NCBI GenBank assembly: GCA_018694115.1
Contig: JABHNB010000005.1
Coordinates: 69,660-133,659 of the forward strand
From: an archaeon
Lineage (GTDB): Archaea; Nanobdellota; Nanobdellia; Pacearchaeales; GW2011-AR1
Direction of reading: 5' to 3'
Length of the DNA: 64,000 bases
The notes under the pieces are model-generated. The model was given only the letters and a program-made list of their open reading frames with translations, did not search any database and was not told the origin of the DNA. The translations under genes were made by a program, and so were the position numbers. Below, piece after piece: positions 49,728 to 58,058 of the stretch (positions are counted from its first letter, which is position 1; every line of letters starts with the position of its first letter).

Positions 49728-50872
49728 AAACGCAAACAGTAAAGGGCTTTCAAGATTTCATTGGAGATGAAGCCTTAAAGAGGGAAAAAATTAGAAAGAT
49801 TATTTTAGAACAATTTGAGCTTTATGGCTTTGAGCCAGCGGAGACTCCTATAATCGAATTTGAAGAATTTATCAAGGGAGATAATCCCCATGATGACGCA
49901 GTTCGAGACGTATTCAAATTGTCAGATCGGGGAAAGAGGAAATTAGCCTTAAGATATGAATTTACATTCCAATTGAAGAGATTGGCAAAAAATCAAAAGT
50001 TGCCATATAAAAGATATCAGATTGGTTACAATTTTAGGGATGAGCCCATAAGGGAAGGAAGGGCGAGGCAGTTTATTCAGTGTGACGCAGATATTATCGG
50101 AAGCTCAATGAAAGATGAAGCTGAATGCTTAAATCTTGGAAAGAATATCTTTGAAAAGATGGGAATGCCAGTTAAGATTTATATTAATCATAGAAAATTA
50201 ATCAACGAAATTTTAGTTGATGAGGGAATAGAAGAAAAAAATAGGGAACAGGTTATTAGGGAGTTGGATAAGCTAGATAAGTTATCCAAGAAAAAAGTTG
50301 CGGATAATTTGAAGGGTCTCGGGGCGGAAAAAGTTTTAAAGATTTTTACTGGGAAAGAGAAGGATTTTGAAAAGTACAAGTTCTATGGAGAAATTAAGGA
50401 ACTGAAGAAATTTTGTAAAATGTATGGAGTGAGTGTGGAGTTTCGACCATTTTTAGCGAGGGGACTTTCTTACTATAATGGATCCGTTTTTGAAATTTGG
50501 TCAGAGGAGTTAAATGTATCTCTTTGTGGGGGCGGTAGTTATTTGGTTTCTGGGATTCAATCTACTGGAATTTCATTTGGGATAGAACCGATTTTCAGAT
50601 TATCTAATGTTCAGGGCGAGGGCGCGAATTATCAGGTGATTTCTGTTGGAAAGGACACTGAAGCGATTAAACTAGCAGAGAACCTTCGTAAGAGGGGTAT
50701 AAAGGTTAATTTAATCCTTGACAAGGCAATAGGCAAGGCACTTGACTATGCAAACTCAAAAGGTGTAGAAAAGGTAATTTTTGTAGGGGACGAGGAAGTC
50801 AAATCAGGAAAGTTTAAGGTTAAAGATATGAAATCTGGAGAAGAAAAACTCCTAAAAGAAAATAAACTTTGA
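49724..50872 (+). CDS. hisS: Histidyl-tRNA synthetase
   Basis: VKGFQD, LRYEFT, FRDE..R.GR.RQF.QCDAD, RGLSYYNG, GISFGIE, C-terminal anticodon-binding domain. Confidence 0.95.
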   Translation: MKTQTVKGFQDFIGDEALKREKIRKIILEQFELYGFEPAETPIIEFEEFIKGDNPHDDAVRDVFKLSDRGKRKLALRYEFTFQLKRLAKNQKLPYKRYQIGYNFRDEPIREGRARQFIQCDADIIGSSMKDEAECLNLGKNIFEKMGMPVKIYINHRKLINEILVDEGIEEKNREQVIRELDKLDKLSKKKVADNLKGLGAEKVLKIFTGKEKDFEKYKFYGEIKELKKFCKMYGVSVEFRPFLARGLSYYNGSVFEIWSEELNVSLCGGGSYLVSGIQSTGISFGIEPIFRLSNVQGEGANYQVISVGKDTEAIKLAENLRKRGIKVNLILDKAIGKALDYANSKGVEKVIFVGDEEVKSGKFKVKDMKSGEEKLLKENKL

Positions 50873-50873
50873 T

Positions 50874-51356
50874 TTACTTTTTCCCGCCCTTACCTTCTTC
50901 TGCTTCTCTATTCTTCTTTCGTTCTCGAGCAGCAGCTCGTCTTGCTTGTTTTTTCTCAAAGTTGTCCTCTGCCGCTGCAAGAGCTGCAAGAGCGTCCTCA
51001 GGATCATCATTCCTCACACTATCTACAAATGGACTATCTCCAGAGAATGGAGGTTCCCTTCGAATAACATTAAGAACCAAATAATATGGATCTCGGCTGT
51101 TTATCGAATGGACTAAAAGGAGAGTACCATCACTTTGATCATAGGGCCTTGCAGAAATAAGATCCTTAAAAGTTAAACGAAATTCTCCCTCATCAGAGCG
51201 TTGTTCGATAAGCTCTCTTCTTTCTTTGGGGGAAACATAATTAGCACCTTCAAGAGAAATCACGCTACCGTCCTCTTTTTGAAGTTCACCAGATCTATTT
51301 TTATTAACTATAACTTTGCCTTCCTTTACGTAATAAATTGTGGGTTCATTTCCCAT
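50874..51356 (-). CDS. Hypothetical protein
   Basis: ORF only. Confidence 0.6.
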   Translation of the reverse strand: MGNEPTIYYVKEGKVIVNKNRSGELQKEDGSVISLEGANYVSPKERRELIEQRSDEGEFRLTFKDLISARPYDQSDGTLLLVHSINSRDPYYLVLNVIRREPPFSGDSPFVDSVRNDDPEDALAALAAAEDNFEKKQARRAAARERKKNREAEEGKGGKK

Positions 51357-51407
51357 ACTAGAACATCATTAGTCTCCTTTTAAGAATTATTGTGATAAAT
51401 AATATAC

Positions 51408-51848
51408 CTAATCTCCTTCATTAATGATCTCAACGATACTCAGTTCTTTTCCGCTCCTTTCTTTTCCCCGTTTCATAAATTTATAGATCAAAACTCCGCC
51501 AGCATCTTCATAACGTATATTTTCCCTCTTTGATCTGGCCATTTCCTTAGCTAGAAGTTCATCAAATTGCCTTGATTTTTCGTCAGATTTTTCCCCCTCA
51601 ACTGAAGCCAGATGGCTCTTCCATGCCCAGGAAGTAATATATGCCATCCCAGTCAATTCCACATCATGACCCTTTCCCACAGGACTCGCATAATAGCTCC
51701 CGTCCTCCTTTTCTAGAAACTCTAATTTCCCCCCAGTCTTATATCTCCTTACAACCGCAGGTTCATAGATTATATTCATGATCTCCGCTTCACTTAAACT
51801 TTCTCCATTTTCATCGTTTTCATCCATGATCCAGAAACTTGCTTTCAC
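51408..51848 (-). CDS. Hypothetical protein
   Basis: ORF only. Confidence 0.6.
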   Translation of the reverse strand: MKASFWIMDENDENGESLSEAEIMNIIYEPAVVRRYKTGGKLEFLEKEDGSYYASPVGKGHDVELTGMAYITSWAWKSHLASVEGEKSDEKSRQFDELLAKEMARSKRENIRYEDAGGVLIYKFMKRGKERSGKELSIVEIINEGD

Positions 51849-51858
51849 CTTATAAGAT

Positions 51859-52683
51859 TTATTGTTCTACACTATCTACATCATCCGAACCATCATTCAA
51901 CAAGTCTAATTCTCCTTCGATTTCCTGAAGCTCTTCAGGGTGTAAATTCAAGGTCATATGAATCTCATCAAAATGAACTGGCTGCCGAAGGAAAAGTTTT
52001 CCGTTATTTGACAGGTGTAAAACTGGAACAAATGATGCTAACTTCTCCTCTCTCGAAGGGGCAAGATGAGAATATTTCATATGGTCATTATCTGGATGAT
52101 CCACATGTACCTTAACTCTCGCAAAAATATTTTTAACCCGGGTTCTCAGTGGAACATGTGTTCCTTTAGGTAAAACAACTAAGATAGATTTCTCCGCTTG
52201 TCTGCCCTTGATCTCTCTCTTGATTCTTCGATTTTCGGTATCAATTGCCTTATTCAAAGCGCCCATCAATTCCTTAAGGGTCACTTTCCGGTGTCTTGCC
52301 ATTGGAGTTCGAGGAACAAGGATGGGTAGTTCATTCTCATCAATTTCTAATCTTTCAATTTCATATTTTCTTTCCTCTTTTCGACCATAAAGTGCATCAT
52401 CGAGACTCTGGATATAACTATTAACTAATATGTCCGACTTTAGTCTCAACAATAAGGAACAAGCAAGTAAGACTTTAGATGAGATAAAAAAATCTGCTTC
52501 CTCAAGTTGGCTAATCGCTTCGACATATTTATCTGCTAAAATTCCAATGTCAATATCCCAGGGATCCAATTGTTCAGTCTTAATTAAATCATAAATTAAA
52601 GCTTGCCATGAAAGCTCTTCACTGGTAATTAAATCAAAAAATTGAGATTGGTTTATTCTATCTACGTCCTCTTTTTCCCTCAT
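51859..52683 (-). CDS. scpA: Segregation and condensation protein A (kleisin)
   Basis: LDPWDIDI..LADKY, LLRLKSD, RKVTL.EL..AL, C-terminal winged helix F..VLHL...L.Q...F.EI. Confidence 0.88.
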   Translation of the reverse strand: MREKEDVDRINQSQFFDLITSEELSWQALIYDLIKTEQLDPWDIDIGILADKYVEAISQLEEADFFISSKVLLACSLLLRLKSDILVNSYIQSLDDALYGRKEERKYEIERLEIDENELPILVPRTPMARHRKVTLKELMGALNKAIDTENRRIKREIKGRQAEKSILVVLPKGTHVPLRTRVKNIFARVKVHVDHPDNDHMKYSHLAPSREEKLASFVPVLHLSNNGKLFLRQPVHFDEIHMTLNLHPEELQEIEGELDLLNDGSDDVDSVEQ

Positions 52684-52808
52684 GAAACATTTATATATGG
52701 CACTATTAATAAACATTTAGATGCCAAGTAGATAAAAAGAGATCCAGTTGGTGTCACTCGGCAATTACAACAGAACCGAAAGGTTTAAATAGTATTCCGC
52801 ATTAATTA

Positions 52809-53140
52809 TAATATCACCTCTTTTTCCCCAGGAGAGGGCAATAGGGCATCTTTTTGAACGCTTTATTGCCACTCCTAGGGTTTATATTATGTTTAATATT
52901 CGAGGCTGTATACCTCATATAAGACCTAAGCTGGATTACTTGTAATCTAAGGCATTGAAAACAAAACTGTGATATTAAACATGAATCCCCTTTTCTCCCC
53001 AGGGTTTCAAATTTCTTCAAAAAGAAAAGAGTTTATAATCCCAACAAAAAATCCATAATTCGTATAAGACCTACGATAACCAAATGAGGTTAAGGCAACG
53101 AACGGATTTATATTTTTTAAAAAATTTAATTTTTTTTTTT
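52809..53140 (+). ncRNA. Putative structured ncRNA made of two related units
   Basis: Own BRE/TATA at 52778-52791, multiple stems, repeated TATAAGACCTA-hairpin-TAAGGCA module, poly-T end. Confidence 0.5.
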
Positions 53141-53238
53141 GAAAAGAATCCCCACATTAATGTTGGGGGATGATTGCCCTGGGTATGTAAACACTTTAGA
53201 ATGGTAACGTTTATAAATAATAATAATGCCAGTTATTC

Positions 53239-53834
53239 ATGGGCAAGGTATTTTCAACGAGACAGCAGAAGTCATCTACATTAAGTATGTCAGGACTTCG
53301 GAAGAATAAGCCTCAGTATATAATTATACATTCTACAAGGAAACATCCGGAATTTGAAGATGTTCTTAATTGCCATAAGGAAAAGGAATGGGCTGGAATG
53401 GGCTATCACCTATTTTTATCTGATTCTGGAATATTGACTCAGGGAAGGCCATTTGAGTTAGAAGGGGCCCATGCCGTGGGTTTTAATACTAATTCTATCG
53501 GATTATGTATTTATTCTTCTAATGGTTCACTTAGTCCAAAAAAATAAGGTTAGGAAAAGAGGTAATCAGAGATTTACAAAAACAATTTGGGAATTTAGAA
53601 TTAATGCCCCACACACTTGCCCAGGTTATGTATAATAACCGATTATTAGAAGAAAGGGGATTAGACCCCCTGCCCGGAGATATTGGGGTTGCTCATGATG
53701 AGGAATTTTCAAGATTAAAGGAAGCGGCAGATAGTCTTGCTGGAAGATTAAATACTCAAGGTCACGAGGGACTAAAACTTTCGCTTAAAGCTCTTAAGAA
53801 TTGTCCTGGCGAGATATTTTATAGCCTTATTTAG
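53239..53834 (+). CDS. N-acetylmuramoyl-L-alanine amidase (Amidase_2/T7 lysozyme/PGRP type), frameshifted at A7 (53538-53544)
   Basis: IIIHST, W.GMGYH, GRP...GAHAVGFNTNSIGLC in frame 0; PH and KNCPG in the -1 frame. Confidence 0.85.
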
Positions 53835-53837
53835 AAG

Positions 53838-55034
53838 ATGGAAGAGAGATATATTGGGGTAGAAAATGAACTAATTTCCTTTAAGGATGGCACTGAAGTA
53901 GAATTCGGTGATTATTTTAAACAGTTAAAAGATTCAGTTGGAAAAACCCACGATATCTCTGGAACTTCAATTAGAACTGATACGGGGCATGGTTTTTATG
54001 TGGATGGCGATGAAATTGAAATATTAACTCCTCCTATTGCCCTTAACAGGGGATTTTCTAGTAGACTTACCGATTCTTTGATGGCTGGCAGGGATATTGT
54101 CCTTGAAGCAACCCCCGAATTAGAACATACCGGTTATTCTATGCACTGGAATTTATCCGATAATGACAATATTATGGGCAATAGGCTATACGAAGCTATT
54201 GCCATACCTTTTCAAATGTTTGGTCTAACGCCACTTTCCACGGGATTTAATTTGCGTCACAAGGATTATAGATTTGAAATATTGGGAGACTCCCTAACTC
54301 GGGAGAATCAGATTAATGCAACGGCCCTATTGCTTGGCGCGAGTCTTTGTGCTATGGAAGAAAGGAAGTATACTCCTCTGAGATTGGCAGATCGTAGTTT
54401 TTCCTCGGATGATGCGCAGGAGATATTTATTTCTGATGGGAGATATAGTTTTGTTGATGTGGATGTGCCAACTGCAGGCTTCCAAGGTAAAATGCAAGTG
54501 CAACAATATTTAGAATTATTTCACCGTTGGATAAGTCCCTTCGTTAGACGACTTGGAACAAGAAGGGAGGCCTGGAATCTGGAATCTTTTATATTTGGAA
54601 AAGAAAACTTGGAATTTGACGATTTAAAATATTTTGAATTAATAGAAGGGGGAGGGGGGGCAGTTGATGGCATTTATAAGCCGATTAGTTTAGCTAATTC
54701 TGAGAAGTCTAGACAGGTGTTGGTAAAAGGTGAGACTAAACGAGAACTTCCCTTAGAGTGCAGATTGCTTGGAGCAGTTGTTGGAGAATTAACCGACATA
54801 GAGGAGTTTGGATGGGATCATTTGTATTATTCTAGGGATTATGGGAAGACAAATGTGAGTGGAATTGGAGACATTTATCGGCATATGTCTTCCACCATTA
54901 AGGGCCTTCCAAGATTTAAACCCTCCCAAGATTTTCCTGAGGAAAAGCTAAAAGAAATTAGTGAAGTTGCCTTAAATGATGAAATAAAATATGAACCTGA
55001 TAAGGATTTATCGGCAGAATCAGTTCAAGGATGA
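53838..55034 (+). CDS. GS/GCS-fold carboxylate-amine ligase, PafA/Dop (Pup ligase)-like
   Basis: RYIGVENE, GHGFYVDGDEIEILTP, GYSMHWN, YRFEILGDS collinear with PafA RIMGIETE, GARLYLD..HPEYAT, SYGCHEN, YRRLHVIVGDS (recalled consensus). Confidence 0.65.
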   Translation: MEERYIGVENELISFKDGTEVEFGDYFKQLKDSVGKTHDISGTSIRTDTGHGFYVDGDEIEILTPPIALNRGFSSRLTDSLMAGRDIVLEATPELEHTGYSMHWNLSDNDNIMGNRLYEAIAIPFQMFGLTPLSTGFNLRHKDYRFEILGDSLTRENQINATALLLGASLCAMEERKYTPLRLADRSFSSDDAQEIFISDGRYSFVDVDVPTAGFQGKMQVQQYLELFHRWISPFVRRLGTRREAWNLESFIFGKENLEFDDLKYFELIEGGGGAVDGIYKPISLANSEKSRQVLVKGETKRELPLECRLLGAVVGELTDIEEFGWDHLYYSRDYGKTNVSGIGDIYRHMSSTIKGLPRFKPSQDFPEEKLKEISEVALNDEIKYEPDKDLSAESVQG

Positions 55035-55075
55035 TGCAGTGAAACATCCTAAAGGTACTGGAGAAGGTAATTAAA

Positions 55076-56050
55076 GTGATATCCTTAAGAAATAGAAAAC
55101 TGAAGAGAAGTTTAGAGGGCACAATTTCCAAGTTACATGGGGGGAGAGATTTTTCTGGAGAGATAAAGGTATCTGTTTATGATATTGAAAGCGGGGTTAA
55201 TGCTTCTGTTGGTGGAAATGATTCTGGTTGGGCAGCTTCTATAATTAAAGTTCCAATTATGATTTCTACCTTGCAAGAGATCGAAAAGGGAAGCCTGACG
55301 TCGAGGACAAAACTTGAAGTAAATCACGAATTTATGTTAGAACCCTGGAATTATGTTTCTAGACTTCCAGATAAATCTAAGATCGGGGTCAAGGAGTTGA
55401 TATACCGCATGATTGTTGCTTCAGATAATGAGGCAACAAATATCCTGGCTAACCATATTGGCATTGAGAGAATAAATAGGGATATGTGGGAGTTGGGGAT
55501 GGAAAATTCTATGTTGGGACACTTGCTCTGTCCAGGAGCCCAAAGATATACCTCTCCAATGAACCCAGACGGGAGTAATATTACTTGCCCTAATGATATG
55601 GTGAAGATTATGAGGCATATCTACGACGATTCATTTTCAAAATTGAATTCACGTGTTCGTGCTAATGCGGATAAATTTTTGGATATCTCTCCACCACATT
55701 TATTGGATACTGGGGAATTCAGGAATAGTTATATCAAAGCAAAAGCAGGATATATTAGTGATCCAAAAGATGGCGAAGATATACATGAGGTTGGAATTAT
55801 TGACGATCATCTGGTTGTCTGTGTTATGCTGAATAAAGTTAAGGATGCGTGGTTTTTCGATAGAGGATTATCGGATCGGGAAGGTGAGTCTCCCTGGGCT
55901 TTTCCAGTTTCTAAAGATGGCTATTTTCAACATGATGGTGATTATTTGATGGACCCTTCTTGTGTTCAGGGAACATTGAGTGGAATGAAACATCTCCCTG
56001 GGGGAGTTATCCATAGAAAAATTATGAATACTATCGCTAATAATATTTAA
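55076..56050 (+). CDS. Class A beta-lactamase/PBP-like serine hydrolase
   Basis: AASIIK (SxxK), SDNEATN (SDN), N.TCP.DM, KAG (KTG-like). Confidence 0.88.
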   Translation: MISLRNRKLKRSLEGTISKLHGGRDFSGEIKVSVYDIESGVNASVGGNDSGWAASIIKVPIMISTLQEIEKGSLTSRTKLEVNHEFMLEPWNYVSRLPDKSKIGVKELIYRMIVASDNEATNILANHIGIERINRDMWELGMENSMLGHLLCPGAQRYTSPMNPDGSNITCPNDMVKIMRHIYDDSFSKLNSRVRANADKFLDISPPHLLDTGEFRNSYIKAKAGYISDPKDGEDIHEVGIIDDHLVVCVMLNKVKDAWFFDRGLSDREGESPWAFPVSKDGYFQHDGDYLMDPSCVQGTLSGMKHLPGGVIHRKIMNTIANNI

Positions 56051-56062
56051 AAGTGAACCAGA

Positions 56063-56299
56063 TTATTCCTTATCTTCTAACTTAATCTCAACATTCTTTT
56101 TTTCGAACTCTGTAAAGTGGCATCGCCCACAATAAGCTCTTCCTTGTCCAAGCGATAAGAAAATACCTGGACCACATCTCGGACATGATCTAGCTTTAGA
56201 AACTATTTTACCATCTTCAATCTTATACTTAGTATATTTCTTAGAAGTAGGCTTGTTAACATGTTTCTTCTTACCCTTAATCTTAGACTTAATTACCAT
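56063..56299 (-). CDS. rps27ae: 30S ribosomal protein S27ae
   Basis: [10 protein letters not shown]...R.YCGRC. Confidence 0.95.
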
Positions 56300-56829
56300 T
56301 ACTTAGCCTCCTCCGCAGGTGCCGCTTCCTTAACTTCGGGTTCAGCAGGAACTTCAGGTTTAGGCTCACCAGAGTCATCCTTTGAGGATTCAGTTGCAGG
56401 AGCTTCTTCCTTTATCTCCGCTTCAGCAGGAGCAGCTTCCTCAGTCTTTACTTCTTCAACAGGAGCTTCTTCCTTTGTTTCAGCTTCAGCAGCTTTCGCT
56501 TCTTCTGCAGCCTTCTTAGCGTCTTCCTCAGCTTTCTTTGCAGCATCCTCAGCAGTTTTCTTTTCAGCTTCTAATTTCTTCCTAACTTTCTGAGGAACTG
56601 TTTCAACCTTATCCTTAGCTTCTACAGAATCATAAACAAAAACATCTGCACTAAAACTATGTTTACCAAAATTTGCATTTATCCTATTTACAACAATTAA
56701 GTCTTCATCAGCACCAGCAGCCTTCTTAACTTCATCATAAGTCGGATTAGTATCTGATTTAAATTCAATTACAATTTCATTTCTAGACAAAAATGGATTC
56801 TTATTTTGAGAGATAATTTTAGATTCCAT
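56299..56829 (-). CDS. rps24e: 30S ribosomal protein S24e with a long acidic tail
   Basis: [10 protein letters not shown]...FG, VYDS; conserved gene order. Confidence 0.88.
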
Positions 56830-56830
56830 A

Positions 56831-57022
56831 TTATTTAGTCTTAATAGCAAACTCGCCTTCCTTGTTTATTTCCATGTTTTCTGCCATCTCAGATTTTTTT
56901 GAATCAAAAATATGGATTCGTCCCTTAAATGTTTCTGTTGATGGTGTCTCGCCACATGCAGGGCACTTATCTCCAAAATAAAGAGTTTTACAGTTCATAC
57001 ATGCCTTTTCCTTAGATGCCAT
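56831..57022 (-). CDS. spt4: Transcription elongation factor Spt4 (RpoE'')
   Basis: KAC..C...CP.CG...F.G...S..A...G.FAIK. Confidence 0.92.
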   Translation of the reverse strand: MASKEKACMNCKTLYFGDKCPACGETPSTETFKGRIHIFDSKKSEMAENMEINKEGEFAIKTK

Positions 57023-57630
57023 TATTTCTTAGCCCCCTTAGCTCCCTTAGTTGCTTTAGCTTCCTTAGCCACAAGTTCTGCATTCTGTCTCTTTAACTTT
57101 TCCTTATCTGCCTGAACCCAATCAAGCTTACCAAGTCCTGGTTGTCTCATAGTCAAACCAATCTTTGGTTCTTCACCACGATAGGAAATCGCAACAATTC
57201 TTGCGATACAATTATCTCCTTGAGCAAGCGTTTTCTTACCGTCCTTTCCAGTTAATGTACCTGTATCTGAGAATGAAACAAAGTCATCCATTGTCTGAGA
57301 AATATGAATCATACCACGAATAACACCCATATTCATGAATGCACCGAAGTTTGTAACTTCTTCAATTGTACCATAAACAGCTTCGTGCAATTCTGGCCTG
57401 AAAACAATTAATTCAAAAGTAGATTCGTAATAAGCAGCACCGTCGCCAGGAATGATGATTCCTTCCTTTACTTCCTTAACATCGAGAACTGAGACAACTG
57501 TCCCAATATCTTTGTCTTGGAATCCAGAATAAGATTCTTCCAGCTGAGTACGCACAGCTTCGTCTGTAGTCATCCCAAACTTATTCGGGTCAACCCTGAC
57601 ATGATCCGTAACTAGAACTTTCAAGAACAT
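57022..57630 (-). CDS. rpoE1: RNA polymerase subunit E' (Rpo7)
   Basis: GDGAAYY, FGAF, HISQ.MDD, KIGLTMRQPGLGK. Confidence 0.96.
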   Translation of the reverse strand: MFLKVLVTDHVRVDPNKFGMTTDEAVRTQLEESYSGFQDKDIGTVVSVLDVKEVKEGIIIPGDGAAYYESTFELIVFRPELHEAVYGTIEEVTNFGAFMNMGVIRGMIHISQTMDDFVSFSDTGTLTGKDGKKTLAQGDNCIARIVAISYRGEEPKIGLTMRQPGLGKLDWVQADKEKLKRQNAELVAKEAKATKGAKGAKK

Positions 57631-57674
57631 AATCTATTGAGAAAATTTTGGTTTATAAAGCTTGCGTTGGAAGT

Positions 57675-58058
57675 CTAAATAATCTGCAAACTCTTCTTTC
57701 CGCGAATGGACAAAATCTTGTTATCGACCCTATTTTTTAGCCCTTTATCCAATGTAGCAAGAACAATGGGCTTTCCAAGTATATAATTAACGATTTTAAT
57801 GTCAACATTGGGATGTTTACCTCCAAGTTCGACAATTTTAGGACCCAAACCCTTCAAAATCTCAAAACTCAACCCCGCAGCATCCCGATCGATAACTTTT
57901 GTCCCCTTTTGATCTTTCAAGTTGCCTAATTCATTCAAAACTTCTTGAGGAACGATCCATTCAATGGGCTCATCAAACAACTGCTCAGCTAGTTCTGCAA
58001 AGTCAATCTTTTGTTTTACACATGTCAAAACGAAGTTTGTGTCTAATATGATTTTCAT
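57675..58058 (-). CDS. PIN domain protein (Fcf1/Utp24-like)
   Basis: IILDTNF, V.NEL, VD, LATLDK.LK; usual position upstream of rpoE1. Confidence 0.9.
   Translation of the reverse strand: MKIILDTNFVLTCVKQKIDFAELAEQLFDEPIEWIVPQEVLNELGNLKDQKGTKVIDRDAAGLSFEILKGLGPKIVELGGKHPNVDIKIVNYILGKPIVLATLDKGLKNRVDNKILSIRGKKSLQII

Follow-up and report, generated by a model that had tools for sequence, protein, structure and literature searches.

We found that the middle gene of a three-gene locus in the 64,000-nucleotide stretch of archaeal DNA analysed here (the window) encodes a member of an unmodelled, previously unclassified protein family which, judged from its predicted structure, is closest to Dop and PafA. 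Its neighbours encode an Amidase_2/PGRP-fold zinc amidase and a probable PBP-A-like DD-peptidase. The three are part of a module that is a rare conserved accessory element of Nanoarchaeota/Pacearchaeota-type (DPANN) archaea, of which the window, from a small archaeon of symbiotic type, holds a reduced copy. Both the family of the middle gene and this gene linkage appear undescribed. As to function, we tentatively favour the ATP-dependent processing of peptidoglycan-type gamma-glutamyl peptides at the inner face of the membrane.

All three genes lie on the + strand. Gene 1 starts with the ATG at 53239 and ends with a TAG at 53832-53834, only 3 nt before the ATG of gene 2 (53838-55034, 398 aa), whose stop ends 41 nt before the GTG start of gene 3 (55076-56050, 324 aa). 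The layout of three tightly spaced co-oriented genes described in a first-pass annotation of this DNA was therefore recovered, except that gene 1 is split by a frameshift. The TATA box placed by that annotation at 53210-53217 was also found, as the octamer TTTATAAA on the + strand, 21 nt upstream of the ATG of gene 1. This octamer is enriched in the window (13 found versus 5.0 expected, with none of 100 shuffles reaching 13), and we infer that it serves as a promoter. From its position, the mRNA of gene 1 would be leaderless or nearly so.

By searching sequence libraries with the gene 2 protein, we obtained no Pfam, NCBIfam or PDB match. Neither PF03136 (Pup_ligase) nor PF04107 (GCS2/YbdK) matched it at E up to 1, and PF03136 also found nothing in the whole genome at E up to 10, with a positive Corynebacterium control, nor in any of the 47 distant relatives scanned. 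The family, which comprises 221 cluster representatives among 1.84 billion proteins, is without a Pfam model. In a language-model atlas, the clusters nearest to gene 2 were Pup_ligase clusters (scores 0.87, 0.86 and 0.85), a proximity that we take as a lead only since all scores are below 0.9. The AlphaFold (AF2) model of the protein was confident (pLDDT 94.6, pTM 0.94) and has a carboxylate-amine-ligase fold, in line with the earlier expectation of a GS/GCS fold. When compared with the PDB by Foldseek, it best matched Dop (7oyh_A, E 1.4e-10, TMq 0.56) and PafA (4bjr_B, E 1.7e-10), with weaker matches to the YbdK-type 1tt4_A (E 3.5e-6) and to GS (E 9e-5 or weaker). VIA gave the same order, with Dop at Z 21.1 (329 residues aligned, rmsd 4.0), PafA at Z 19.1, the YbdK-type structures 1tt4 and 1r8g at Z 18.2 (253 residues aligned) and Z 18.1, plant GCL at Z 17.0 and GS at about Z 11. 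Since the alignment to Dop spans residues 3-356 of the model (chain residues 2-488) and that to 1tt4 only residues 1-297, the match to Dop and PafA includes the C-terminal domain.

The motifs of gene 2 that had been read as collinear with the PafA/Dop active site are indeed present: G7-V-E-N-E11, Y54-V-D56..E59-I-E61..T64-P, H103-W-N105 and R145..E147..G-D151-S. Nine of these residues (E9, E11, Y54, D56, E61, H103, N105, E147 and D151) are invariant in 51 homologues, across which G7 and N10 are at least 90% conserved, and the invariant acidic, His and Arg residues map to beta strands predicted in the AF2 model. The GhExE motif, described in the accessible parts of PMC2588565 and PMC7947786 as the ATP/Mg site motif of the superfamily, corresponds to G7-V-E9-N-E11 on strand 1. 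The predicted fold is compatible with PafA-like ligation as well as with Dop-like hydrolysis and cannot discriminate between them. For brevity, we refer to gene 2 and its homologues as ligases.

Given that PafA and Dop are the best structural matches, C-terminal domain included, the ligase could be thought to conjugate a small protein to lysines, as in pupylation. However, by screening 1369 small ORFs (25-150 aa) in the region of the window and 13 related loci, we found a G[EQ] ending in only three, each located within another gene and not conserved, which agrees with the first-pass remark that no small ORF ending in GGE or GGQ is adjacent. PF03136 finds nothing in this protein or genome, as stated above, and no proteasome gene occurs in the neighbourhoods of the module. 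In bacteria, the Pup gene invariably adjoins the PafA gene, according to the accessible text of PMC2588565. Because no Pup-like gene is adjacent here, we consider protein tagging of this kind highly improbable.

Gene 3 encodes a serine enzyme with the fold of class A beta-lactamases. It matched Pfam Beta-lactamase2 (E 3.9e-29), and its best sequence match in the PDB was the PBP-A Tll2115 (2j7v, E 3.1e-11, residues 34-186). The SxxK, SDN and KxG motifs already pointed out in this protein are S55-I-I-K58, S116-D-N118 and K223-A-G225, all invariant in 39 homologues. A true class A beta-lactamase is less likely, as gene 3 scored 48.5 bits against NCBIfam bla_class_A (cut-off 200) and far under the cut-offs of the other named bla families, and PBP-A is closer. 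Of the earlier label of a beta-lactamase/PBP-like enzyme, we therefore favour the PBP-like half. The general base in the omega loop of class A beta-lactamases is Glu166. Between SDN and KxG, the sequence alignment of the 39 gene 3 homologues contains invariant H149, N163, G166 and N168 and no invariant Glu. Judged by its sequence, gene 3 probably encodes a PBP-A-like DD-peptidase. PBP-A is reported in the accessible text of PMC11189452 to be a DD-carboxy/endopeptidase that prefers muropeptides amidated on D-iso-Glu, a preference that links the gene 3 fold to the residue most plausibly touched by a GS-fold enzyme.

Gene 1 is not one open frame, a point missed in the first-pass annotation. Its N-terminal piece (53239-53547, 102 aa, frame 1) halts at a TAA directly after a run of seven A (53538-53544; CCA AAA AAA TAA), and the gene continues after a -1 frame change at this run as a C-terminal piece of 99 aa plus the TAG stop (53535-53834, coding 53535-53831). 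The assignment to Amidase_2 and its zinc and catalytic residues stood. First, the N-terminal piece matched PF01510 (E 4.5e-9, profile positions 2-83 of 131) and carries a near-invariant His (IIIHST) and a GYH motif. Second, the C-terminal piece, for which alone we found no Pfam match, contains the second zinc His (PHTLAQ) and a K-x-C-P-G motif, separated by a helical insertion of about 65 aa. Third, the two pieces tile the 198-aa homologue P0259 exactly and without gaps, with 70% identity to its residues 1-102 and 60% to its residues 102-198. In homologues both pieces form a single ORF, the full-length proteins matching PF01510 at E 2e-10 to 3.5e-8 and keeping the His, Tyr-His, His and Cys-Pro-Gly near-invariant. 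The model of one full-length homologue (pLDDT 93.6) matched endolysin amidases (6srt, E 5.6e-9), PGRP-LB and T7 lysozyme (1lba, E 6.8e-7), with AmpD as a weaker match (E 1.1e-4). A hydrophobicity scan of gene 3 and of five full-length amidase homologues detected no hydrophobic segment at their N-termini (0 segments in gene 3), consistent with the lack of obvious signal peptides noted before. As for the frameshift itself, contigs of two other runs bridge the run of A with 0 differences and 0 gaps (X5 record 2, 53428-53657, and X7 record 9, 53453-53670), at low depths of 3.0 and 2.4, respectively. Since these contigs carry the same allele, it is no artefact of this assembly.

By looking for the three genes elsewhere, we observed wide co-occurrence, the test that the first-pass annotation had set. 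All three were present at 8 of 14 loci from genomes and at 15 of 29 from metagenomes, which makes 23 of the 43 loci outside the window. Two gene orders were found, amidase-ligase(n)-membrane protein-PBP and amidase-PBP-ligase(n). In a sample of 401 genomes of the phylum, the ligase is present in seven; strong full-length matches to the PBP-like protein (E 7e-68 or better) are present in six, all within these seven, and full-length amidase matches in 11, including the same six with ligase and PBP-like protein. The rarity of the module, which the first-pass annotation had missed, extends to the genus, as no trace was found in any of the five same-genus genomes searched, all of which have ScpA adjoining S27ae at the corresponding site.

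The full module has four parts; the first-pass annotation had overlooked a fourth gene and the membrane tether of the ligase. These parts are (i) a zinc amidase of the T7-lysozyme/PGRP type, about 200 aa long and carrying the helical insertion, (ii) one to five Dop/PafA-like paralogues, of which the copy adjoining the membrane-protein gene usually has a C-terminal membrane helix, (iii) a single-pass membrane protein with an N-terminal anchor, preceded by a short conserved Lys/Arg-rich cytoplasmic tail, and (iv) the predicted PBP-A-like serine DD-peptidase. A hydrophobic segment follows residue 400 in 21 of the 51 ligase homologues (KD >= 1.6), and such a segment is present in 23 of the 45 ligase ORFs that are complete at the loci (KD >= 1.5). 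In the window, the membrane-protein gene is absent and the ligase is without its C-terminal membrane tail.

These losses raise the possibility that the cluster in this genome is a decaying, functionless remnant, with the amidase a pseudogene and the ligase and PBP-like genes on their way out. Besides the missing tail and membrane-protein gene, the -1 frameshift is fixed in contigs from independent runs, the module is absent from the five same-genus genomes, at a syntenic locus (L006) the ligase is truncated and the PBP-like gene missing, and ligase paralogues are split at three loci (L055, L057 and L058). Moreover, no RNA structure beyond chance, and so no stimulator, follows the slip site (z 0.33). 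On the other hand, the shift lies on A_AAA_AAA followed by a stop, a classic setting for -1 ribosomal or transcriptional slippage, and the 99 codons past it are without stops or indels, keep all conserved residues and are 60% identical to the nearest homologue. In addition, both the ligase and the PBP-like gene have an intact frame and retain every invariant residue, and ligase paralogues without a tail occur in other loci too. Taken together, we regard a functionless remnant as a possible but rather doubtful explanation.

A different role is suggested by the membrane partner, whose predicted outside domain hints at envelope or contact function rather than salvage. The tethered ligase and the membrane protein could modify a surface or membrane protein, or couple archaeal surface material to wall peptides of the host, while the amidase and the PBP-like enzyme remodel the link. 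The genes of a ligase with a C-terminal helix and of a membrane protein with an N-terminal helix are indeed adjacent, the membrane protein gives weak FG-GAP-like signals, and among distant relatives of the ligase there are fusions to beta-propellers of NHL or PQQ type, or to an RHS-repeat protein of which the relative forms the N-terminal part. From the accessible parts of the literature, Iyer et al. suggest that membrane-anchored Pup ligases modify membrane proteins (PMC2588565), and Pace- and Woesearchaeota have been proposed as episymbionts of bacteria (PMC8204110). However, neither the amidase nor the PBP-like enzyme has an export signal, an ATP-dependent domain preceding a C-terminal anchor should remain intracellular, the FG-GAP evidence is under Pfam thresholds, and the window copy keeps intact ligase and PBP-like frames although it has lost the tail and the membrane protein. 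We therefore find such an envelope role unlikely.

We also considered that the module builds or tailors an endogenous small peptide or envelope polymer with gamma-glutamyl and D-amino-acid links, like the Pup-less GS-fold peptide-synthesis families of Iyer et al. Arrays of up to five ligases would suit stepwise or varied peptide assembly, and the enzymes are apparently cytoplasmic; in the accessible text of PMC2588565, GS-fold families without an adjacent Pup are interpreted as peptide-forming. Against this, the partners, an amidase and a DD-peptidase, point to degradation or remodelling rather than to synthesis, and the genome of the window (82.7% complete) is small (0.9 Mb) and biosynthetically poor. 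It contains no Mur_ligase_M match (the control was positive in 13 of 14 genomes), and its only Dala_Dala_lig_C match is a RimK-like ATP-grasp protein. Biosynthesis thus seems to us an improbable function.

No SLT lytic transglycosylase was found in the 82.7% complete genome either; with no SLT and no Mur ligase, this genome offers no visible upstream supply of muropeptides or downstream use for them, and no transporter or permease is conserved beside the module in the neighbourhoods of related loci. Of the 401 genomes of the phylum, 209 carry SLT, a tally that includes one unpublished genome (G244), and it is not enriched with the trio (four of five trio genomes). Murein-directed enzymes are common in this phylum also according to the accessible parts of PMC8204110, PMC9723730 and PMC12352652.

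Among these readings, the processing of peptidoglycan-type gamma-glutamyl peptides is the one we favour, with somewhat less than even confidence. As the three enzymes are without signal peptides and the ligase fold uses ATP, we locate the chemistry at the cytoplasmic side of the membrane. The substrate would be a peptide of peptidoglycan type, derived from bacterial wall material, that ends in D-Ala and contains a Glu which is gamma-linked or amidated. The amidase would release the peptide from its sugar, the PBP-like enzyme would trim or exchange the terminal D-Ala, and the Dop/PafA-like enzyme would phosphorylate a Glu carboxylate at the expense of ATP. The phosphorylated Glu might then be joined to an amine, as by PafA or GCS, or a glutamyl amide might instead be broken or deamidated, as by Dop. 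Tandem ligase paralogues would serve different peptide chemotypes or acceptors. The window copy would be an eroded version, having lost the ligase tail and the membrane-protein gene and needing a -1 shift at the run of A for amidase production; being damaged, it may do nothing here. The cut-and-ligate action on bacterial muropeptides proposed in the first-pass annotation remains plausible. Against the favoured reading stand the missing supply and use of muropeptides, the absence of a conserved transporter, the lack of SLT enrichment and the hint of an envelope role given by the membrane partner. Moreover, the modelled amidase resembles secreted or phage enzymes more than the cytoplasmic AmpD, and a cytoplasmic PBP-like DD-peptidase is unusual.

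A bolder and quite speculative proposal, in which we place little confidence, is that DPANN archaea carry a Pup-independent, membrane-tethered Dop/PafA branch that forms or cleaves isopeptide-type gamma-glutamyl bonds on wall peptides of bacterial or pseudomurein-like kind, and might serve to attach the wall peptides of a host covalently to an archaeal surface protein, the single-pass membrane protein encoded next to it. Such coupling, if true, would give these archaea a new conjugation chemistry with which to attach to a host or feed on it, and the tandem ligase paralogues would then tune host range. To our knowledge, neither Dop nor PafA has been described outside bacteria or without Pup, and the host archaea of the module make no murein. 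A Pup-less archaeal family structurally close to Dop and PafA points to a second use for this branch of the glutamine-synthetase fold. Because it is strictly linked to an amidase of murein type and to a PBP-A-like peptidase, it also gives a testable handle on how ultra-small archaea handle bacterial wall material. Biochemistry is feasible because the enzymes are small, soluble (the ligase tail excepted) and confidently modelled. Seen for this genome by itself, the finding carries less weight, since its copy is partly degraded.

Compared with known systems, gene 2 shares with Dop and PafA (PF03136) the fold including the C-terminal domain, the GhExE-type first strand and the Y-x-D on the cradle strand (the invariant Y54 and D56). 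In Dop, the accessible text of PMC8599861 places R90, Y92 and H95 near the nucleotide and also names D94, and membrane-anchored forms are known among bacterial Pup ligases (accessible part of PMC2588565). In contrast, identity in structural alignments is only 12-15%, with no sequence match to PF03136 or PDB chains, and gene 2 is archaeal and linked to wall-type enzymes instead of an adjacent Pup/UBact-like gene or the proteasome. Also, the conserved Dop-loop, 40-65 residues long and placed before strand beta2 (PMC8599861, accessible text), is absent from the gene 2 model, in which residues 1-100 form short, well-ordered and compact elements (block pLDDT 91-98). With YbdK/GCS2 (PF04107) and the glutamate-cysteine ligases, gene 2 has in common the GS-like core cradle and the same metal/ATP motif logic, but the match to them covers only model residues 1-297, without the C-terminal domain.

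SxxK, SDN and KxG are common to gene 3 and PBP-A (Tll2115), the Thermosynechococcus elongatus DD-peptidase that stands close to class A beta-lactamases; PBP-A was studied in the E. coli periplasm (accessible text of PMC11189452), whereas gene 3 has no signal peptide. For gene 1, the modelled homologue matches the fold of T7 lysozyme, PGRP and phage endolysin amidases (TM by target 0.59-0.70, E 5.6e-9 to 7e-7). The His, Tyr, His and Lys-x-Cys of the family presumably correspond to the zinc and catalytic residues of T7 lysozyme. Unlike those enzymes, the gene 1 family carries its helical insertion (about 65 residues) after the second His and before the Cys and is without a cell-wall-binding domain, holin or phage context, and the copy in the window is frameshifted.

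Bacterial cytoplasmic peptidoglycan recycling uses the AmpD amidase, the LdcA carboxypeptidase and the Mpl ligase. The logic is alike, in that an amidase without signal peptide and a peptidase that trims the peptide would work on stem peptides together with an ATP-dependent ligase, but two of the three steps differ in enzyme family, a PBP-A-like fold standing here in place of LdcA and a GS fold in place of the Mur ligase. Moreover, the window's 82.7% complete genome shows no Mur ligase or wall synthesis, and no permease is conserved beside the module. Finally, with the secreted modular peptidoglycan hydrolases of archaea and the large lytic-transglycosylase proteins of DPANN (PMC12352652, PMC8204110 and PMC9723730), the accessible parts of which make no mention of the module, it shares the theme of murein-directed enzymes in murein-less archaea. 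As far as those texts go, the secreted enzymes are modular and carry binding domains, whereas the module described here is signal-less, spread over several genes and equipped with an ATP-dependent enzyme.

The middle gene of the co-oriented trio (gene 2, 53838-55034) had no match in Pfam, NCBIfam or PDB sequences, either as a single sequence or as a profile, and the PF03136 model matched nothing across the whole source genome. By modeling the protein with AlphaFold from a 51-sequence alignment (pLDDT 94.6, pTM 0.94) and searching with Foldseek, we found that Dop (E 1.4e-10) and PafA (1.7e-10) ranked first, followed by YbdK-type GCS2 enzymes (3.5e-6 and 1.2e-5) and then by glutamine synthetases (9e-5 and weaker), in line with the GS/GCS-type fold expected from the first-pass annotation. 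Structure comparison with VIA gave Z scores of 21.1 for Dop (329 residues aligned, model 3-356), 19.1 for PafA (318, model 1-355), 18.2 for YbdK-type (253, model 1-297), 17.0 for plant GCL (260, model 1-295) and about 11 for GS (209-224, most rows listed as 1-398). From these ranges, the Dop/PafA match also takes in the C-terminal domain. The invariant residues (E9, E11, Y54, D56, E61, R76, H103, N105, E147 and D151) sit on predicted strands of the model and include the GhExE motif, described as the ATP/Mg site of the superfamily (PMC2588565, PMC7947786). The motifs first read as collinear with the PafA/Dop active site are found again here, as GhExE plus Y54, D56, H103, N105 and D151. In an atlas search, Pup_ligase clusters were nearest to gene 2, a match that we take as a lead only because every score was below 0.9. 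Complex prediction for ligase residues 1-400 and the amidase (scores of 0.07, 0.55 and 0.00) was evidence neither way. Together, the predicted structure and the motifs indicate that gene 2 is a Dop/PafA-like enzyme from a family without a Pfam or NCBIfam model.

Among 8000 scored candidates, 60 were homologous to gene 2 at E 0.001 or better, with stated organism names of Pacearchaeota or Nanoarchaeota throughout. An exhaustive profile search against the clusters of 1.84 billion proteins returned 221 representatives at E<=0.001, 139 of which reach 1e-10 and 99 reach 1e-30. From the 150 representatives listed, the long and the distant ones, 47 in all, were compared with Pfam: 42 had no family at E<=0.01 and none matched Pup_ligase or GCS2. 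Three others are distant fusion proteins carrying the ligase domain (P0123, P0165 and P0175; NHL repeats, a PQQ-type beta-propeller and an RHS-repeat protein), the domain being N-terminal (residues 48-325) in the 2432-aa RHS-repeat protein. The remaining two had weak matches alone, to TRI5 and TPR_P4H.

The last gene of the trio (gene 3, 55076-56050) matched Pfam Beta-lactamase2 (E 3.9e-29), and SxxK, SDN and KxG are invariant across 39 homologues, among which no invariant Glu was found between SDN and KxG. By sequence, the closest protein of solved structure is Tll2115/PBP-A (E 3.1e-11), reported as a DD-carboxy/endopeptidase that prefers muropeptides amidated on D-iso-Glu (PMC11189452). With 48.5 bits against the NCBI class A cut-off of 200, it does not qualify as a beta-lactamase by that threshold. 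Of the double label "beta-lactamase/PBP-like" the second half is the one supported, and gene 3 is, judging by sequence, PBP-A-like. A hydrophobic segment is absent from 38 of the 39 homologues, the window protein included, and an export signal is absent from all three enzymes, which had already been described as having no obvious signal peptide.

The first gene (gene 1, 53239-53834) was annotated as an Amidase_2 enzyme; the family assignment holds, the single open frame does not. The N-terminal piece (53239-53547, plus strand, 102 aa) covers positions 2-83 of the 131 in the Amidase_2 profile (E 4.5e-9) and ends in TAA directly after an A7 run (CCA AAA AAA TAA). The C-terminal piece (53535-53831, plus strand, 99 codons) lies in the -1 frame and had no Pfam match by itself. 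In related loci both parts form a single ORF of about 200 aa, and the nearest homologue (P0259, 198 aa) is tiled without a gap by the two pieces, with 70% identity over residues 1-102 and 60% over 102-198. Contigs from two other public sequencing runs (X5 record 2, depth 3.0; X7 record 9, depth 2.4) bridge the A7 run without difference, so the frameshift is the organism's own and not an assembly artefact. The frame change falls on an A_AAA_AAA heptamer with a stop codon directly behind it, a classic arrangement for slippage. The predicted RNA fold of 53530-53640, where a stimulator was sought, was no better than shuffles (z 0.33). The split may reflect either a pseudogene or recoding. The structure model of a full-length homologue (pLDDT 93.6) matched endolysin amidases, PGRP-LB and T7 lysozyme (E 5.6e-9 to 7e-7) and, more weakly, AmpD (E 1.1e-4), which places the predicted enzyme nearer to secreted and phage enzymes than to AmpD. 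Family members also share an insertion, helical and roughly 65 residues long, that separates the second zinc His from the Cys-Pro-Gly motif.

The source genome is archaeal (0.9 Mb, 16 contigs, 82.7% complete), and archaeal housekeeping genes lie on both sides of the trio: HisRS and ScpA (ScpA on the minus strand) upstream, and the minus-strand genes of S27a, S24e, Spt4, an Rpb7-like subunit and a PIN protein downstream. The ScpA-S27a interval holds, as first described, three tightly spaced co-oriented genes behind a TATA-like octamer, TTTATAAA (53210-53217). The genes are on the plus strand with gaps of 3 nt and 41 nt, and 21 nt separate the octamer from the first ATG. This palindrome occurs 13 times in the window (5.0 expected; 0/100 shuffles reach 13). 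It is probably a local TATA box, and a promoter role ahead of gene 1 is plausible. It is often found just upstream of gene starts, for instance at 57652-57659 between two minus-strand genes. The 520-nt gap between ScpA and gene 1 (52717-53238) contains a 68-aa minus-strand ORF without Pfam match (52814-53020), a T11 run (53130-53140) and then an imperfect inverted repeat (53150-53169). Searches for tRNAs and Rfam families over 50000-58000 and 52600-56200 were empty. S24e (56299-56850, minus strand) has 183 aa, with the Pfam domain at residues 11-98 and, behind it, a long tail rich in Ala, Glu, Lys and Pro; its counterpart ORF in L006, a locus from a more distant genome, has 125 aa.

The neighbourhood search proposed at first pass recovered the trio elsewhere, complete in 8 of the 14 genome loci compared (L005, L007, L008 and L019-L023, out of L001-L008 and L019-L024) and in 15 of 29 metagenome loci. 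Most incomplete loci are short contigs or cut at an end (e.g. L001-L003, L047, L049, L051, L053, L056, L059 and L061-L064). Neither partner gene occurs in L004, L024, L050 or L055, where several kb are available on each side; L054 and L057 have no PBP-like gene downstream, and in L006 the amidase and a truncated ligase are all that is present. Two gene orders were found. First, the amidase is followed by one to five ligase copies, a membrane protein and the PBP-like gene. This membrane protein (345-430 aa) begins with a short, basic and conserved stretch, followed by a single hydrophobic helix, with FG-GAP hints below threshold. Second, the amidase is followed by the PBP-like gene and one to five ligase copies, and a 510-550-aa protein with weak FG-GAP matches comes next in three of five genome loci. 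Of the ligase homologues, 21 of 51 have a C-terminal hydrophobic segment (KD>=1.6), as do 23 of 45 complete ligase ORFs in the loci (KD>=1.5), and the copy preceding the membrane protein always does. By a rough proxy that equates contigs by size, 24 of 49 distinct ligase-match contigs recur among PBP-like matches and 10 of 14 amidase matches share a contig with a ligase match. The linkage is real and wider than three genes.

Tandem arrays reach three to five ligase paralogues per module (L008:456-7308, L058:4468-12529, L003:1-4329), with a membrane tail on some copies only. L001, a 4576-base contig labelled as a Bacillota MAG, carries a DPANN-type module and is probably mis-binned; its ligase is identical to P0012 at 481/482 positions, and its amidase (P0255) is also on a 22539-base contig. 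In L002 the module is preceded, 1.5 kb away, by a form II/III-type RuBisCO large subunit (L002:772-2223), and a GH18 glycosyl hydrolase (L004:4178-5431, minus strand) is divergent from the adjoining ligase and membrane-protein pair in L004.

Of 401 genomes sampled from the phylum, seven contain the ligase (0/27 of the same family, 0/5 of the same genus). The PBP-like subfamily gave strong matches over the full length (E 7e-68 or better) in six genomes, all among these seven, the other 18 matches being weak and partial; full-length amidase matches occurred in 11 genomes, including the same six. In all five same-genus genomes ScpA adjoins S27ae, about 0.1-1 kb apart, and no trace of the module was detected by HMM (E up to 1). 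In L006, the amidase and truncated ligase sit at the corresponding place, between ScpA and S24e. Split ligase paralogues occur in L055, L057 and L058, the last copy in L058 being broken by a stop. These absences, truncations and split copies make the module a patchy, loss-prone accessory element. No ligase relatives were found on viral contigs. The window ligase stops at residue 398, just past the conserved K-D-x-S motif and without a tail, and since the PBP-like gene begins 41 nt after it, the membrane-protein gene is absent from the window module; a four-row profile of that protein, a weak test, did not match the source genome either. The window copy is thus reduced relative to the usual module. 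Independently of any reading of function, we regard it as less likely than not that the source genome's copy is non-functional.

We rejected a pupylation system. The Pup gene of bacteria is described as invariably adjoining the PafA gene (PMC2588565). Here, as first noted, no small GGE/GGQ-type ORF is adjacent: of 1369 small ORFs across 13 loci and the region of the window, just three have a G[EQ] ending, each of them nested within another gene and unconserved, and no proteasome gene was found in the neighbourhoods examined. Pup-like protein tagging is accordingly very improbable. Murein synthesis was also rejected, as no Mur ligase was found in the source genome (82.7% complete) and its sole Dala_Dala_lig_C match, to a model that matched all 14 controls, is a RimK-like ATP-grasp protein. 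This protein (L035:1192-2106, contig 11; Pfam RimK E 1.7e-19) is followed by a 305-aa ORF without Pfam family.

Carboxylate-amine ligases of the GS-type fold are described as using ATP to phosphorylate a carboxylate, usually the glutamate gamma-carboxylate, before transfer to an amine, and in Dop the acyl-phosphate chemistry serves glutamyl-amide hydrolysis (PMC2588565, PMC7947786). Endogenous peptide synthesis by such an enzyme is improbable in our view. The two constant partners belong to families that cleave murein peptides at the MurNAc-L-Ala amide and at the D-Ala-D-Ala terminus. Murein-directed enzymes are common in this phylum, SLT occurring in 209 of 401 genomes, and published work says likewise (PMC8204110, PMC9723730, PMC12352652). 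We tentatively favour, at somewhat less than even confidence, a module that handles imported wall-type peptides for salvage or processing at the inner face of the membrane, this location being suggested by enzymes without export signal and a ligase often held at the membrane by its C-terminal helix. In this scheme a wall-type peptide would be released by the amidase, its D-Ala trimmed or exchanged by the PBP-like enzyme, and its Glu/iso-Gln position ligated, cleaved or deamidated by the Dop/PafA-like enzyme, with paralogue arrays widening the substrate range. Several observations count against salvage: no lytic transglycosylase is visible in the source genome (82.7% complete), no permease is conserved beside the module, and SLT is not enriched in trio genomes (4/5 vs 209/401 in the phylum, a tally including the unpublished genome G244). 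The predicted likeness of the amidase to secreted and phage enzymes over AmpD would weigh the same way. A role in modifying the envelope or host contact, at which the membrane partner protein hints, is less probable than salvage and, on balance, unlikely.

We found no description of the gene 2 family or of the trio linkage in the DPANN, peptidoglycan and pupylation literature, supplementary tables aside, which agrees with the initial view that the combination belongs to no described system; the accessible text on DPANN and archaeal hydrolases does not mention it. The supplementary lists of PMC8204110 (DPANN families) and PMC12352652 (hydrolases) might name these families. Dop carries a Dop-loop, reported as 40-65 residues long (PMC8599861), and the gene 2 model has none. 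Gene 2 would represent a new, archaeal and Pup-less family on the Dop/PafA side of the GS fold, and its conserved gene context would be new as well.
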